This document shows, in pieces, positions 25,486 to 45,970 of a stretch of DNA of 64,000 bases. The position numbers were made by a program, and so were the translations under genes. The DNA is from Escherichia coli (lineage in GTDB: Bacteria; Pseudomonadota; Gammaproteobacteria; Enterobacterales; Enterobacteriaceae), in the NCBI RefSeq assembly GCF_003018235.1, contig NZ_CP027437.1; one strand, written 5' to 3'. The notes under the pieces were generated by a model. The model was not told the DNA's origin. It saw only the letters and a program-made list of their open reading frames with translations, and ran no database searches. Numbering within the stretch: position 1 is the stretch's first letter; each line of letters opens with the position of its first letter.

Positions 25486-26281
25486 ACACAGGAAAGTTAT
25501 GGGCTTGTGTGATTCAGAAAGTGTGAGGTTACGTGCAAAATGGCCAGACATGTAAAAAAGAACTTGAATGCAGTGTCGGCATGGTGGTATTTTTCATCTG
25601 CTGCCACAGTGCTGGCAGTCGGGAATACCACCCCGTATGTGTCAACGGCGACATCAGACGCCGCAAGCGTCTTTTTTGTTGTCGTAACCTTATACGCCAT
25701 GAAGCTCCATTTTATGGTGCGGTGTTATCCATTAAGAGCCGTTGCAAGCGCCTCTACCGGAAGGGGCTGGATAACATCCACCACCATGTCAATGGTAGCT
25801 CAGGCGGGGCCGACTTCGGTCGGGCCGGTTTCCGTTGGCACCGGTAGTGGTATCCCCGTCTGGGCTATCGCCAGTGAGCATACCACCTCCTGCGATAGCA
25901 GTATGTTATGTCAACGGAGGCTGCCTGAATGGCTACAATCCCAACCCAAAAGCGCCCAAAATCCGCGCTCCCCCAGCTCAGCAGTGACTGTCGTCGCCGG
26001 ATACACCGTGTGCAGATGGTTACGCTCCATTATTACATTCAGTGTCTCGCTGATAATCCGTGTTCAGTTGATTTTTGTTTTCCGTACTTATTGTCTTACA
26101 TCCACGATGATATTAAGGCTATAGATAATGAGTTAATTTCTCTTGGCCTGTTTGAACAGGCGATGGGAAAGAAAAAACGACGATAGTTTTCATCGTTATT
26201 AATTAACGTTGTCAGGAAGTATTAAACACACCGCTCACGCGGCGGGAATCTTACATCTTAAATATCTGACGAGGTGGAAAC

Positions 26282-32401: not shown

Positions 32402-32894
32402 CCACGGATAAAGAGAACTAAATTTCGTCAGAATTAACAGGAAATAACTGGAACGAAAAATACACCGCTTACGCGGCGGGGTTTCTGCAACCTTAAAACA
32501 GGGTAAGAGAAATGGCAGAGATGATGAACAATAAACTCTTCATAACCAGTCTCTTTAAGTTGACTGGCCGGGAGTAACGACCAGTGGCAATACAAAAAAA
32601 CCGCTTGCCAGCGTTTGTCTGGTCGGGTTACATTTCCCGTGCACCTCATAAAACGGGTGCCGGGATTCTCAACCCGCAGAAGAACAGAGCGCATAACCGC
32701 GCCAGCGGTTTTTTTATGCGTGCCGTATCGTCACACCTTTTTCGCACACGAATTATGGCGGGGCGTACGGGGCCGACTTCGGTCGGGCCGGATCCTCTGT
32801 TCTCCGGTGTTGAGAACCCCGTACGTCTCGCCACCCCGAGATTCTCAACTCTGGATGGTGAGTTATGTCTATCACTGAACAGAGGTTACCCCTT

Positions 32895-39457: not shown

Positions 39458-39534
39458 GCGCCGTTAGCTCAGCTGGACAGAGCAATTGCCTTCTAAGCAA
39501 TCGGTCACTGGTTCGAATCCAGTATGGCGCACCA
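39458..39534 (+). tRNA. tRNA-Arg (anticodon UCU)
   Basis: Manual cloverleaf: acceptor GCGCCGT/ATGGCGC, D-arm GCTC..GAGC, anticodon loop CTTCTAA, T-arm ACTGG-TTCGAAT-CCAGT, CCA end. Confidence 0.85.
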
Positions 39535-39535
39535 T

Positions 39536-39610
39536 GCGGTCATCGTATAATGGCTATTACCTCGGCCTTCCAGGCTGATGATGCGGGTTCGATTCCAGCT
39601 GGCCGCTCCA
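39536..39610 (+). tRNA. tRNA-Gly (anticodon UCC)
   Basis: Manual cloverleaf: acceptor GCGGTCA/TGGCCGC, anticodon loop CTTCCAG, T-loop TTCGATT, CCA end; close to glyT tRNA as I recall it. Confidence 0.8.
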
Positions 39611-39768: not shown

Positions 39769-40321
39769 TATTTTTAGTATTTAGCCAGAGTGGCCCAAAC
39801 AGAAAATAAAGTTACTGTGAAACAGGGGGGCCTAATAAAAATAATCACCACTAAATTCGGGGCTTTAAAAATGCTAAGAACATCACATTTCATTATGCCG
39901 GGTACTGGAGAATAACATGATGTTTTGTTAAAAATGATTTTGCATGGTGAATCCCCCTGTGCGGCGGGGCATAATGACAGATGTTTGGTTGCGTATTGTA
40001 TAGGCAAGTTGCGGATTCTGTCTGGTCATTGCAGAATTCACCGGGAGGCACCCGGCACCATGCAGATAATTGTTTTGTGGATGATAATACCAGCCCCTCT
40101 CCGGAGGGGCTTTCTTATGGGCGAAAAAAAGCCCGGGGAGCCGGGCAATAGCATGAGATATACGTTTTTATAGACGTACAGATTTTAATCAGAATTTATG
40201 GGGCTGCGCAACTGCGTGGCCTTTTTTGTTTTGTGGGCTAAGGTTTTCCCCTTTGATTCGCCATGTGGCTGAACCTGTAGCCCGCCACTGTTCAGACGCA
40301 ATCCCGGCAAGGGGAGGAATA

Positions 40322-42349
40322 ATGGCATTTAAACACTACGATCTGGTCTCTGCCAGCAGCGGTGATGAACTGCAAAAGAAACTGACAGAAAAAATAAATG
40401 AAGGGTGGCAGCCATACGGTTCGCCGCTTGTTTCGTATGACGATAACGGGATGAAAATTATTCAGGCCATTGCAGCAGAGGGTGATGTCAGGATCCCGGT
40501 TGAAACGCCTGATGATGGTGGTGATTCACCGGTCACAATGACCTCCGGTGCACCTGATTATTATTATGTTGTTGTGCTTGCCGGACAGTCCAACGGCATG
40601 GCCTACGGTGAGGGGCTTCCGTTACCGGACTCTTATGACCGCCCGGACCCGCGCATTAAACAGCTGGCACGCCGCAGTACAGTGACGCCGGGTGGGGACG
40701 CCTGTGCATACAATGATGTGATTCCGGCTGACCATTGTCTGCATGATGTACAGGATATGAGCGGTGTTAATCATCCGAAAGCGGACCTGAATAAGGGGCA
40801 GTATGGCTGTGTCAGTCAGGGGCTGCATATTGCCAAAAAACTGCTGTCGTATATCCCGCAGAATGCAGGGATACTTCTGGTGCCCTGCTGCCGTGGTGGT
40901 TCTGCATTCACCACCGGGGCTGACGGCACATTCAGTGAGGTCACCGGCGCATCCGCTGACGCTGCACGCTGGGGTGCCGGTAAACCCCTGTATCAGGACA
41001 TGGTCAGCCGGACAAAAGCGGCGCTGGCCAAGAACCCGAAAAACAGGCTGCTGGCGGTGGTATGGATGCAGGGCGAGGCAGACCTTGCGTCAGGCAGTCA
41101 GCAGCATAACGGGTTATTCACGGCCATGGTTCAGCAGTTCCGGACTGACCTGTCCTCACTTGCTGCGCAGTGCGTGAGTGGCAATGCTGCCACGGTGCCG
41201 TGGATTTGTGGTGATACCACGTATTACTGGAAGGCCACTTATGGCACACAGTATGAAGCCATTTATGGAGCCTATAAGAATCTGTCCGCACAGAATATTT
41301 TCTTTGTACCGTTCCTGACAGATGAAAACGGCGCAAACACGCCAACGAACCAGCCAGCGGAAGACCCGGATATTGTGGCTGTGGGGTATTACGGTGCGGC
41401 ATCACGAACACAGGCGAACTGGACGACAGCGCAACGTGACAGCCATTTCAGCACCTGGGCGCGTCGCGGCATCATTTCTGACCGCCTTGCGTCAGCTATT
41501 CTGGTGCACGCGGGACGTACGTCAGGTTTCATTACCGGTGAAGTTTCTTCTCCGGACACTGCATCCGGTGACGGTGGTTCGTCCACTGATGCGGGTACGG
41601 ATGCGGGGACCGGCACTTCCGGAACAGGAAGTGATGACGCTACCGGAACGACACCAGCCACCGCTGCCATTATTCTGAGTGCAGACGGAGGGGATGTTTC
41701 GGCACAGGGCTGGACGGTGGAAGGCACCACGGTGACCACCACGGCAAACACGGTGACTTCATCGGGTGAGGCGCTGGCGCAGAATGTGCTGAGTGTTCCG
41801 AAACAGAGCGGGGCAGCATGGAAGCTTGTTCATACCACCACAGATGAGCCAGCGGAACTGCTGAACAATGGCGGTGAGTTCCTGTGTCGTTTCCGTATCA
41901 CGGATACTGCCATTGCTGAGGGGCGTTATGCCTTTGGTCTTTACTGGCTTCCGGACGCACAGAAGATACCAGCCGGTGCGACATTCAATAAAACAGGAAG
42001 CGGGATGTCCCCGTCCATGCTCAACTTCTATGTCCAGACGGATGGCAGCAACATAAACCTGTTATCACACTGCAGTACGAAGAGTGCAGGGAATCTGAAG
42101 ATTGGCTCATTCGGTGCATTTAACAATGAATGGCATACCTTCCGTCTTCGCTACCATGGTGGCAATACGGCAAGAGCAACGGTGACGCTGGACAGTCAGG
42201 TGGTGGGAGATATAACGCTGTTATGTGCGCCGTCAGCGGCCAGTGCCGGTGACACTCTGTCGATGATAAGTATCACATCGGGTGATACATACAGTATTGA
42301 AGTGGAAAGCCTGAGTGTGACGGTGAACGGGGCTGCGGCAGCGGCGTGA
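40322..42349 (+). CDS. Prophage-type sialate O-acetylesterase-like protein (nanS-p-like)
   Basis: GGGGAGG SD; N-terminal MAFKHYDLV... domain then VVLAGQSNGMAYGEG esterase-like segment; located between tRNAs and holin as in Stx-type lambdoid prophages (recollection). Confidence 0.55.
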   Translation: MAFKHYDLVSASSGDELQKKLTEKINEGWQPYGSPLVSYDDNGMKIIQAIAAEGDVRIPVETPDDGGDSPVTMTSGAPDYYYVVVLAGQSNGMAYGEGLPLPDSYDRPDPRIKQLARRSTVTPGGDACAYNDVIPADHCLHDVQDMSGVNHPKADLNKGQYGCVSQGLHIAKKLLSYIPQNAGILLVPCCRGGSAFTTGADGTFSEVTGASADAARWGAGKPLYQDMVSRTKAALAKNPKNRLLAVVWMQGEADLASGSQQHNGLFTAMVQQFRTDLSSLAAQCVSGNAATVPWICGDTTYYWKATYGTQYEAIYGAYKNLSAQNIFFVPFLTDENGANTPTNQPAEDPDIVAVGYYGAASRTQANWTTAQRDSHFSTWARRGIISDRLASAILVHAGRTSGFITGEVSSPDTASGDGGSSTDAGTDAGTGTSGTGSDDATGTTPATAAIILSADGGDVSAQGWTVEGTTVTTTANTVTSSGEALAQNVLSVPKQSGAAWKLVHTTTDEPAELLNNGGEFLCRFRITDTAIAEGRYAFGLYWLPDAQKIPAGATFNKTGSGMSPSMLNFYVQTDGSNINLLSHCSTKSAGNLKIGSFGAFNNEWHTFRLRYHGGNTARATVTLDSQVVGDITLLCAPSAASAGDTLSMISITSGDTYSIEVESLSVTVNGAAAAA

Positions 42350-43102: not shown

Positions 43103-43318
43103 ATGTACCAGATGGAAAAAATCACAACAGGGGTGTCATACACCACGTCAGCGGCGGGAACGGGATACTGGTTACTGCAGCTGCTGGACAGGGTCTCCCC
43201 GTCCCAGTGGGCGGCGATAGGCGTGCTGGGGAGTCTGCTGTTTGGTCTGCTGACGTACCTGACGAACCTGTATTTTAAAATCAGAGAGGACCGTCGTAAG
43301 GCGGCGCGGGGAGAATAA
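43103..43318 (+). CDS. S: Holin, phage-21 S-type (pinholin-like), dual-start motif
   Basis: [71 protein letters not shown]; two TM segments; Met1 and Met4 starts. Confidence 0.85.
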
Positions 43319-43321
43319 ATA

Positions 43322-43953
43322 ATGAACCATGAAGAAATGAATCAGCGCTTCAGTCGCCTGGAAAATGAAATTGCCGGACTGAATAAAAAACTGTCGGCGC
43401 TGGTGACTTCTGAAGATGAAAAAAAAAACGCCGCGATGAACAGGAGGCGGCGTTTTATGATTATTGCATCAAAGTTGCCCGCAGGACCTTTGCGAATTTT
43501 TTGCAGGAAAAGCTATCACCGACCACATCGTCAGAAAAGTACTCCATTACGGTTGAAAGTGCCGGAGAGGAAGGCAATAAACGTTATTTTATTGCGTCTG
43601 CACCGGATAAAGACGAGGAACCCCGTCGGCCTTTCAGGGTTTCCTATGAAGAGGGGGAGTTCGTCGTTTATGAGAACGGAAAACCTGTCCGGGCATCGCA
43701 TCATCACTGCCTGAAAATTATTGATCTCGCTATTGGATGCCTGAAAGACGAAAACACCAGGGTTATGAAACGCATTGGCCGTTGCATGGGGTATCTGCAG
43801 GTGGCGGCAGAGATTGAAGCACTTGACAGTGGTGCTGACAGGGATACAGCGGTGCGGGAGTTCCTTCTTCGTGATTTCAATACCACGCCCTTTAAAAAAG
43901 TGCCTTATGACTGGATCCAGCCGGGCCTGACTTATCTCAAAGGGCGTATATGA
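43322..43953 (+). CDS. Hypothetical protein interrupted by a frameshift at an A10 tract (43419-43428)
   Basis: Frame 2 (43322-) and frame 1 (-43953) both look coding and would fuse into one ~210-aa protein with one extra A; starts 4 nt after the holin stop. Confidence 0.4.
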
Positions 43954-43995: not shown

Positions 43996-44529
43996 ATGAA
44001 CGCAAAAATCAGATACGGCCTGTCGGCTGCCGTTCTGGCGCTGATTGCCGCAGGGGCTTCTGCGCCAGAAATCCTTGACCAGTTTCTGAATGAAAAAGAA
44101 GGTAATCACACCACGGCATACCGTGATGGTGCGGGTATCTGGACCATCTGCCGTGGTGCCATTCTGGTGGACGGTAAGCCTGTTGTTCCCGGCATGAAGT
44201 TGTCGAGGGAAAAATGCGACCAGGTTAACGCCATCGAACGTGACAGGGCGCTGGCATGGGTGGAGAAAAACATCAAAGTGCCGCTGACCGAACCGCAGAA
44301 AGCGGGGATTGCGTCATTCTGCCCGTACAACATCGGTCCTTCGAAATGCTTCACCTCAACGTTTTACCGGAGACTGAACGCCGGAGACCGTAAGGGGGCA
44401 TGTGCTGAAATCCGTCGGTGGATATATGACGGTGGCAGGGACTGCCGTATCCGCTCAAACAACTGCTACGGTCAGGTATCCCGGCGTGACCAGGAGAGTG
44501 CGCTGGCGTGCTGGGGTATCGACAGATAA
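43996..44529 (+). CDS. R: SAR endolysin (T4-lysozyme-like muramidase)
   Basis: Gly/Ala-rich N-terminal SAR segment GLSAAVLALIAAGASA; catalytic E-x8-D-x5-T (EGNHTTAYRDGAGIWT). Confidence 0.9.
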   Translation: MNAKIRYGLSAAVLALIAAGASAPEILDQFLNEKEGNHTTAYRDGAGIWTICRGAILVDGKPVVPGMKLSREKCDQVNAIERDRALAWVEKNIKVPLTEPQKAGIASFCPYNIGPSKCFTSTFYRRLNAGDRKGACAEIRRWIYDGGRDCRIRSNNCYGQVSRRDQESALACWGIDR

Positions 44530-44864
44530 GCAGAATATTTTGCTGAAAAATGAGATTTTCCCACGCGTCCGGAAAACACAAAATCCTTCATAAAGGTATT
44601 TCAGTAGTGAATAAAAGTAAAAACCCCGATTGCGCTAACAGTCGGGGTTTTGTGTTTCTGACCTTGAATAAGGCAAGGGAGAAATTATCAGGTAGGGAGG
44701 TGCTTTCCCTGTGAGGAAGTATAAAAGATTCTTTCTGAGGTTGTCCATTATGAAAGGCATTGAAGTGGAGACGCCAGCCAGTCTGGATTTAACAAGAGCA
44801 GCAGCCTTTGCCATTCGTATTGTGGCAATTGCCATACTGGTCTGGGCAATCCGCTGGTGGTGAT

Positions 44865-45332
44865 ATGAACCGTGTTCTGTATGTGTTGATTATTGTCCTG
44901 CTGGTGGCCTGCGGTGCGCTGTGGCTGGCAACAGACCATTACCGCGATAATGCCATCACTTACAAAGCGCAGCGCGATAAAAAAGTCAGAGAACTGAAGC
45001 TGGCTGACGCCACCATTACTGACATGCAGCAGCGCCAGCGTGATGTTGCTGCACTCGATGCAAAATACACAAAGGAGTTAGCCGATGCGAGAGCTGAAAA
45101 TGAAACTCTGCGCGCTGATGTTGCTGCTGGTCGTAAGCGCCTGCGTGTCAACGCCACCTGTGTGTCCGCCACAGACAAAGCCACCGGCACCGCCCGCGTG
45201 GGTAATGCTGCCCGCCCCAGACTGGCAGACGCCGCTCAACGGTATTATTTCACCCTCAGAGAGCGGCTGATGACGATGCAGAAGCAACTGGAAGGGGCAC
45301 AGGAATATATCAGGACGCAATGCGTGAAATAG
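44865..45332 (+). CDS. Rz: i-spanin Rz
   Basis: N-terminal TM then coiled coil; close to lambda Rz as I recall ([16 protein letters not shown]..). Confidence 0.85.
45085..45270 (+). CDS. Rz1: o-spanin Rz1 lipoprotein, embedded in Rz in another frame
   Basis: AAGGAG SD; lipobox LLLVVSAC; Pro-rich; ends ...[10 protein letters not shown] like lambda Rz1. Confidence 0.85.
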
Positions 45333-45785: not shown

Positions 45786-45970
45786 AAAGGCGCATTTTTG
45801 TGATTTTATCGTCATCATCATCATGTGTTTAACGTATTGATTTTAAGTGAATTCATCCTGAAAAGATGATGATTGTGGTTAATTTTTGTTCGACATCTTT
45901 GTGTGGCGCTGTTTCTTTACAAAAAAAACAGAGTCACTTCTGTTTTGCGGTATTTGTGGAGGAGGAATAA

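Follow-up and report, generated by a model that had tools for sequence, protein, structure and literature searches.

A ten-adenine run that splits an accessory gene of an Escherichia coli prophage is probably a slipped-strand expansion of an in-frame A8 tract

Between the holin and endolysin genes of a lambdoid prophage, in the 64-kb stretch of Escherichia coli DNA analysed here (hereafter the window), a run of ten adenines (A10) divides an accessory gene between two reading frames. We consider it probable that A10 arose by slipped-strand expansion of an in-frame A8 tract encoding Glu-Lys-Lys, and that it is an inactivating frameshift at a hypermutable tract. Three sequence-based observations, namely that A10 is a +2 expansion, that A8, A9 and A10 occur in otherwise identical copies, and that the tract has shifted independently elsewhere, favour a hotspot or a recent pseudogene over a designed slippage site. 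The feature is real and ordinary in nature: the homopolymer is hypermutable, its gene is accessory and non-essential, and the site does not resemble one conserved for recoding.

The run, the two frames and their prophage setting

The features around the run, all on the + strand, are as follows.

43103..43318, +: class II (S21-type) holin, 71 aa; matches phrog_9876 (8e-40) and phrog_20; adjoins the broken gene upstream
43322..43428, +: N-terminal part of the broken gene, frame 2; residues 1-35, MNHEEM...SEDEKK, to the end of the A-run
43419..43428, +: A10 homopolymer where the two frames meet; in-frame ancestral state A8, GAT GAA AAA AAA CGC = DEKKR
43425..43456, +: RNA/DNA hairpin, AAAACGCCGC, 12-nt loop, GCGGCGUUUU; includes the final four A's of the run
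43429..43714, +: out-of-frame tail, frame 2; 95 residues, basic (NAAMNRRRRFMII...), ending at TGA 43712-43714; product 130 aa
43429..43953, +: C-terminal part of the broken gene, frame 1; RRDEQEAAFYDYC...LTYLKGRI, ending at TGA 43951-43953
43996..44529, +: lysozyme-type endolysin, 177 aa; matches phrog_7 (endolysin, 1e-61); adjoins the broken gene downstream
44865..45332, +: Rz-like spanin, 155 aa from ATG 44865; matches phrog_13 (2e-72), aligned from residue 20 of a 174-aa ORF
45085-45270, +: Rz1 lipoprotein gene, embedded in Rz; completes the lysis cassette

Read from the sequence, 43410-43435 is CTGAAGATG-AAAAAAAAAA-CGCCGCG, so that the A-run occupies exactly 43419-43428 and its immediate flanks are GATG-AAAAAAAAAA-CGCC. 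This is the longest homopolymer of the window, the next being four runs of 8. Dinucleotide shuffles contained 0.30 A10 matches on average, with at least one A10 in 20 of 100 shuffles; an A10 by itself is not very improbable in the window. What is not chance is its position: the run sits exactly where the frame changes in a gene that homologues encode as one ORF.

The original prediction had been that the run splits one gene of about 210 aa, read in frame 2 from 43322 and in frame 1 to 43953, that one extra A would fuse both frames, and that the gene lies between a holin and an endolysin gene. All of this was borne out. The gene is flanked by the PHROG-matched holin and endolysin genes, and its ATG at 43322 lies 3 nt past the holin stop and is preceded, 8 nt upstream, by GGAG. 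The N-terminal part is collinear with residues 1-35 of intact 209-aa homologues. Zero-frame (frame 2) reading through the run gives GAA AAA AAA AAC, or ...SEDEKK-N-AAMNRRRR..., and leads into the out-of-frame tail. Frame 1 is shut upstream by a TGA at 43417-43419 and is open from the tract (43420) to its own TGA; its earliest possible start codon is a TTG at 43501, so close to the junction the downstream part lacks an independent start. When the run was edited in silico, adding one A gave a 210-aa protein and removing two A's gave a 209-aa protein.

Under the slipped-strand reading, the +2 change would cost the gene its frame after residue 35 and inactivate it at the DNA level. Ordinary decoding of the A10 allele would then yield 130 aa, the last 95 of which are a nonsense tail, and the conserved C-terminal 174 residues are without a start codon of their own. 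A search for exact matches to the tail sequence in a collection of 15 billion proteins found none, and neither the whole 130-aa product nor the 209-aa protein occurs there as an exact match. The locus bears the usual marks of a frameshift pseudogene: intact collinear orthologues, a lesion at the run and no independent downstream start.

The first 16.4 kb of the window are E. coli core chromosome (ypjA, ssrA, smpB to rplS), where identity to E. coli genomes is about 99%, and a lambdoid, Stx-phage-like prophage without stx extends from an integrase at ~23.2 kb onward. Within it, the gene order is a DUF6645/SASA esterase-like gene (40226-42349), a DUF1378-type gene, a 111-aa gene, the holin gene, the broken gene, the endolysin gene, Rz/Rz1 and the terminase, whose small and large subunit genes lie downstream of Rz/Rz1. 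The lysis and packaging genes that flank the broken gene are all intact. The holin has a possible dual start, MYQMEK (Met1 and Met4), and PF04971 is on record for an identical holin protein in sister loci, that is, in related copies of this region. The endolysin carries an N-terminal hydrophobic segment resembling a signal-anchor-release (SAR) sequence; PF00959 is on record for an identical endolysin, RefSeq names its homologues lysozyme, and PF03245 and PF06085 are called in sister loci for Rz/Rz1. The broken gene seems to sit, in a lambdoid E. coli prophage, between a holin of the pinholin type and a SAR endolysin.

Tract length in relatives and in copies of the same prophage

Tract states were counted only where lengths were read from DNA. 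Two pattern scans, which we judged to be unbiased, covered IMG/VR viral contigs (matches listed) and metagenome contigs, with the following results.

IMG/VR, 84 family loci among the matches listed: A8, 63; interrupted 8-nt tract, 18 (CAAACAAA, 8; AAAACAAA, 7; CAAAAAAA, 3); A7, 3; A9, 0; A10, 0
Metagenome contigs, 21 family loci: A8, 12; interrupted tract, 7 (CAAAAAAA, which is CA7, 6; AAAACAAA, 1); A7, 1; A9, 1; A10, 0

An in-frame 8-nt tract was present in 100 of the 105 loci listed by both scans, meaning that about 95% are in frame and about 5% are shifted at the tract. Intact genes read GAT GAA AAA AAA CGC here, with A8 coding for DEKKR, and in 296-aa relatives the KRRDE segment is missing altogether. 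Outside the window, A10 was found in none of the 105 scan loci listed and in none of the sister loci read, and an A11 allele in none of the scanned or retrieved loci. Because homologues nearly always carry the in-frame 8-nt tract, A10 is a derived +2 expansion of A8, and the ancestral state was one uninterrupted ORF. Nor do orthologues consistently carry A10 with a separate downstream start, the pattern that the original prediction had set against itself; what they carry is an in-frame 8-nt tract within one ORF.

Sister loci were retrieved through an identical endolysin or an identical 111-aa upstream protein, and the counts of A8, A9 and A10 among them are the minimum of verified loci. Sister copies that match the window without a single mismatch over 1.7-5.5 kb differ from it in the tract alone. 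At 0 mismatches, A8 occurs in at least one assembly (L006/L169), where the intact 209-aa protein is identical to the repaired window protein and the C-terminal part of the window gene (43429..43953) is 100% identical to its counterpart, and A9 occurs in at least five assemblies (L005, L007, L010, L013 and L170). A9 is also found in two more distant copies, L012 (3 mismatches to the window) and L011 (48 mismatches). Among the verified sister loci, A10 is confined to the window. Apart from the tract, the A9 and A10 alleles are undamaged, with both halves translating identically to the intact A8 allele, so the events that produced them are recent. Most probably A8 first became A9, which most sister copies have, and A9 then became A10 in the window strain.

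That A10 is a singleton, set against at least five identical-prophage assemblies with A9 and at least one with A8, also raises the possibility that the run was miscounted in sequencing or assembly. The strain would then truly have A9, still frameshifted but in the other frame, or else A8 or A11, with the gene intact. Homopolymers of 9-10 are a classic error site of long-read sequencing and pyrosequencing, and the window contains a second 1-nt homopolymer frameshift, G6 versus G7 in ypjA, which only 1 of 56 close alleles shares. We nevertheless regard a miscount as unlikely. The ypjA change is the sole indel over 16.4 kb of core genes in comparison with a 99%-identical genome, a T8 run at 5927 is unaffected, and, over 5.5 kb of identical prophage, all copies have the same A8 run at 45921; because these runs agree and the core genes hold one indel, the assembly does not seem to be generally prone to homopolymer errors. 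Moreover, for the gene to be intact, either a 2-nt error (A8 read as A10) or A11, which was found nowhere, would be needed, while a true A9, as in the sisters, would still leave the gene broken.

Tract lengths that put the gene out of frame (A7, A9 and CA8), verified from DNA, occur in at least six further allele backgrounds. A9 is found in L136-141 and in L145, both 92% identical to the window, and in L142 (82% identical); CA8 is found in L143, and A7 in L033/L101, L064 and L153. The 90%-identity clusters to which the A9 groups L136-141 and L142 belong also hold intact relatives. Among the IMG/VR matches listed, 3 of the ~7 truncated copies are due to the tract, which makes up about 1% of the gene length. 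The recurrent shifts, together with this excess share of truncations, show that the tract is a mutational hotspot that has been hit repeatedly and in both directions, and among the alleles compared it has shifted independently in several other lineages. Under the slipped-strand reading, tract length would drift (A7, A8, A9, A10) among identical or near-identical prophages because homopolymers of at least 8 slip in replication and because the gene is dispensable in the lysogen. Read loosely, the recurrence of A9 in non-identical sequences is something that one published description of functional slippage looks for, and to this extent it counts against a hotspot.

The same tract states could alternatively mark a phase-variable contingency locus, in which reversible, high-rate switching among A8, A9 and A10 would adaptively turn an accessory protein of the lysis cassette ON and OFF. 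As in the contingency loci of Haemophilus, Neisseria and Campylobacter, the tract falls near the start of the ORF (codons 33-35 of 209), its length is polymorphic in otherwise identical sequences, and there are ON and OFF alleles: the three states are all that distinguishes copies that match over up to 5.5 kb, shifts to longer and to shorter tracts recur in several lineages, and the OFF alleles are without secondary lesions. Unlike those loci, however, the tract here is short (8 when ON), is often interrupted in relatives and resides in a mismatch-repair-proficient host. A8 is short for a contingency tract in mismatch-repair-proficient E. coli, and this counts against phase variation, as does the finding that ~95% of copies are in frame in both scans (loci listed). 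Because the run is interrupted in many lineages (CAAAAAAA, AAAACAAA, CAAACAAA) or absent, the KRRDE segment being gone in the 296-aa relatives, the tract does not seem to be maintained by selection. The pattern is the one predicted by neutral hotspot mutation in a dispensable prophage gene; judged by sequence comparison, the interrupted or lost runs and the 95% in-frame frequency fit a neutral hotspot better than phase variation, which we consider improbable.

The hairpin, the slippery heptamer and possible rescue

The immediate surroundings of the run contain several elements that would be expected of programmed recoding, in which slippage or a hairpin-aided -1 frameshift sets a fixed ratio of short to full-length product, as in tssM1, mxiE, dnaX and lambda G/GT. 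The run has at least nine A's; a zero-frame slippery heptamer, A_AAA_AAA, lies at 43420-43426 in the frame of the ATG at 43322; frame 1 opens at the tract, and a 1-nt insertion fuses the overlapping ORFs. A stable hairpin (43425-43456; -15.7 kcal/mol, z -4.4, with 0 of 200 shuffles as stable) follows directly, and published sites of like composition shift at 15-60%.

Closer consideration of the hairpin weakens this case. Its GC stem begins 2 nt past the heptamer, whereas the usual spacing of a -1 frameshift stimulator is 5-9 nt. A weaker hairpin (-11.7 and -11.8 kcal/mol) formed in 2 of the 3 relatives folded; the fold of the third, L142, ended before the 3' arm, and the sequence of that arm in L142 differs from that of the window. 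Because of the 2-nt spacing and the only partial conservation, we do not count the hairpin as a frameshift stimulator. A clear upstream SD-like stimulator is also missing, the only candidate being a weak GGTGA 13-14 nt upstream, and no Rfam family matched at the site. The hairpin and U-run were also considered as an intrinsic terminator and set aside; a terminator scan did not flag them (12-nt loop).

Programmed recoding is further opposed by the relatives, which do not keep the split layout: in diverged homologues one ORF contains A8 or an interrupted run, and the variants that are out of frame (A7, A9, A10) land in different frames. Nothing on record matches the 95-residue zero-frame tail, which is no more than a wrong-frame reading of the conserved domain. 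Baranov et al. 2005 look for a split-ORF arrangement and a run that are both conserved in non-identical homologues, and at the A10 site they are not. It is on this point of conservation that programmed recoding fails, and we hold it to be very improbable.

Even if A10 is a frameshift mutation, it may not silence the gene completely. A/T runs of at least 9 are both prone to transcriptional slippage and hypermutable, and split genes with single-ORF homologues have been classed as frameshift mutants, with partial rescue by slippage considered possible (PMC1088944). Rescue amounts to ~20-25% at the A11 run of Citrobacter rodentium tssM1 and to 15-55% at Shigella slippage sites (PMC4256274), and in an E. 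coli expression vector, -1 ribosomal frameshifting on C-AAA-AAA amounted to 25-60% (PMC1851650). Such work on A11, T9 and AAA-AAA sites makes slippage-based expression at a reduced level plausible for A10; the comparison of relatives lends it no support. By analogy, a minority of full-length 210-aa protein might be made from A10, either through an extra A added in transcription or through a -1 shift on A_AAA_AAA; each event would give an EKKKRR junction and the 210-aa protein. In the A9 sisters, rescue would instead need a disfavoured deletion. On A-runs no longer than 8, E. coli RNA polymerase slipped weakly, and deletions were not detected on the poly-A runs tested, up to about A8 (PMC6260861); this poor slippage makes the extent of any A10 rescue uncertain. 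If such rescue takes place, it would be a by-product of the sequence and not a conserved expression strategy.

A further reading would make the tract a genuine expression switch for an accessory protein of the lysis cassette, with A8 fully ON, A9 OFF and A10 leaky, +1 transcriptional slippage or a -1 ribosomal shift giving perhaps 5-25% of the 210-aa protein. We think this quite improbable. Were it true, the step from A9 to A10 would be a partial phenotypic suppressor and not a neutral second hit, and lambdoid prophage populations would tune a late-gene product by tract length.

Identity of the gene and known systems compared

The repaired protein matches phrog_1085 (E = 2.5e-78; residues 78-209 against profile positions 161-296), a phage protein family without assigned function (PHROG). 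Intact homologues of 209-217 aa occupy the same holin-lysozyme position in many E. coli prophages, and the best of them is 96% identical to the repaired protein over its full length. A Pfam scan of the repaired protein gave no match at E <= 0.001, including to DUF1327/YdfR (PF07041); it belongs to no NCBIfam family and matched no PADLOC defence model, and a PDB profile search returned only noise (E >= 0.1). AlphaFold2, run with a 40-sequence alignment, produced a poor model (mean pLDDT 49.9, pTM 0.22), which suggests no more than a helical hairpin at the N-terminus and, past a linker that is poorly modelled, a small beta unit and a C-terminal domain of helices. From the position of the gene and its apparent coupling to the holin gene, we infer that its product is a dispensable, late-expressed accessory protein.

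The YdfR family offers one comparison. In K-12, ydfR of the Qin prophage lies between essQ and rrrQ, the same holin-lysozyme position as that of the broken gene. Proteins named 'YdfR family' (287-333 aa) are 47-73% identical to the repaired protein and likewise match phrog_1085; in the 296-aa forms, the part that begins at about residue 100 spans 99% of the repaired protein. DUF1327 is an N-terminal extension of these longer relatives, and the repaired protein is without it. K-12 YdfR is reported to bind RNase E and RNA through residues 1-72 of the DUF1327 domain (PMC13232886). Because that domain is absent, this activity cannot be transferred to the repaired protein, and the only literature found on DUF1327/YdfR was work on the same N-domain of the K-12 protein.

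As an event, the A10 site is a new instance of a well-known type, and the A/T-run frameshift mutants of Baranov et al. are the closest described category. In their 'green' class (Baranov et al. 2005, Genome Biol 6:R25, PMC1088944), there is likewise a run of at least 9 A's at the junction of overlapping ORFs, and one additional A in the mRNA likewise restores a protein that relatives encode as a single ORF. The genes of this class are usually annotated as pseudogenes, and the authors note that such runs are hypermutable in DNA. In contrast to that class, the run here is an A10 that comes from A8, and the A9 sisters would need a deletion and not an insertion.

The A11 run of Citrobacter rodentium tssM1 and the Shigella mxiE, mxiA and spa sites (PMC4256274) are also enterobacterial genes interrupted at a long A/T run, where addition of bases by the host polymerase and ~15-30% full-length product are documented (PMC4256274). 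There, however, the split is the normal, required state and both products matter, whereas here the split is a rare derived variant whose short product has a nonsense tail. The A10 site therefore resembles tssM1 and mxiE in its sequence, yet we would not place it in their class, because the conservation of the split arrangement was tested and did not hold. A third comparison is with the dnaX A_AAA_AAG site and the pDEST17 attB1 AAA-AAA site (PMC1851650), which share with the present site the zero-frame A_AAA_AAA and tRNA-Lys, a -1 shift leading to full-length protein and a downstream hairpin. By comparison with these, the hairpin spacing here is too short (2 nt), a strong SD-like element is missing and the layout is not conserved.

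For annotation, the ORFs at 43322-43714 and 43501-43953 should be recorded as one frameshifted gene and not as two hypothetical proteins, and the out-of-frame 130-aa product should stay out of protein databases. The tract is a handy hypervariable marker in Stx-phage-like prophages, with the warning that homopolymer length calls at the tract differ between assemblies of the same prophage. If the phrog_1085 gene affects lysis timing, the natural A8, A9 and A10 alleles would serve as isogenic ON, OFF and leaky variants.

RefSeq marks comparable broken copies of the gene as pseudogenes, for example one with an internal stop (L004). In two loci, L169 and L172, the ORF is intact in the DNA though the gene call between holin and lysozyme is missing. 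RefSeq also flags both copies of the gene in CP076709 as 'frameshifted'. We considered these flags as an effect of the tract and rejected this explanation, since one of the copies (L001) has A8 and an intact 209-aa ORF; the flags may instead reflect a reference protein with a different C-terminus.

Alleles and lesions of the interrupted gene

The A-tract between the holin and endolysin genes is in frame as A8 and frameshifted as A9 or A10. A9 alleles (e.g. L005, 1915-1945, and L136, 1501-2037, both loci of related prophage copies in other assemblies) read G-ATG-AAA-AAA-AAA-CGC at the run, which puts the downstream part of the gene in frame with an ATG; gene callers consequently return a 38-aa ORF and an overlapping 178-aa ORF (MKKKRRDE...). 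Such N-terminally truncated "proteins" occur in public protein collections (P0016, P0046, and P0152).

The 209-aa homologue WP_001300760.1, annotated as intact and encoded by a gene that is the same in six RefSeq genomes (H9-H14), ends in ...FNTPPLRKSLMTGSSRG, while another frame of the same DNA (prophage locus L002, about 2096-2150, NZ_CP011416.1) yields the family-consensus C-terminus ...PFKKEPDDWIQPGLTYLKRRI. This ending looks like the result of a 1-nt loss in a C-run, which would be a second homopolymer-linked lesion of the gene family. It may also be the reason that RefSeq flags the A8 copies in CP076709 as "frameshifted"; the one of these copies that was translated (L001) gave an intact ORF.

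Hairpins and other features of the lysis cassette

Two hairpins were found in this region:

43425-43456: stable hairpin, AAAACGCCGC, 12-nt loop, GCGGCGUUUU; -15.7 kcal/mol, z -4.4
44620-44651: strong terminator-like hairpin, 13-bp stem, AAAACCCCGATTG...CAGTCGGGGTTTT, then T-rich sequence

The first incorporates the last four A's of the A10 tract and is followed on its 3' side by a U-rich stretch; two relatives carry weaker versions. Its presence might have an effect on slippage at the tract, during replication or transcription, or might be a coding coincidence of the RR...AA codons. The second lies within the spacer of approximately 335 nt (44530-44864) that separates the endolysin stop codon from the start of Rz, and inside which a 37-aa ORF is called in sister loci. 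The holin begins MYQMEK (43103-43114), so that a second Met codon follows the first in frame at a distance of three codons; this arrangement appears to resemble the holin/antiholin dual-start motif known from the S gene of phage 21.

Prophage RNAs, the stx position, and ypjA

25788-25875, 32641-32715, 32751-32838, 39458-39607, 39912-40122: prophage segments that match Rfam families, namely C4 antisense RNA (two), isrK, tRNA genes (two), and STnc100

The STnc100 match is situated just upstream of the late region. In related Stx phages, the stx genes are found at the position occupied here by a 707-aa SASA/DUF6645 esterase-like gene (40226-42349).

Separately, a G6 run was seen at 465-470 inside ypjA (about 28-4596). 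The run is G7 in E. coli strain 1190 and in a further 54 close alleles, and the only complete genome sharing G6 is that of strain N3 (NZ_CP031609.1). The 1-nt difference splits ypjA/ehaD, an adhesin-like autotransporter gene, into ORFs at 19-513 and 831-4475. As no other indel occurs across the 16.4 kb of core sequence, it is either a genuine frameshift, the second at a homopolymer, or a miscall of the run's length.
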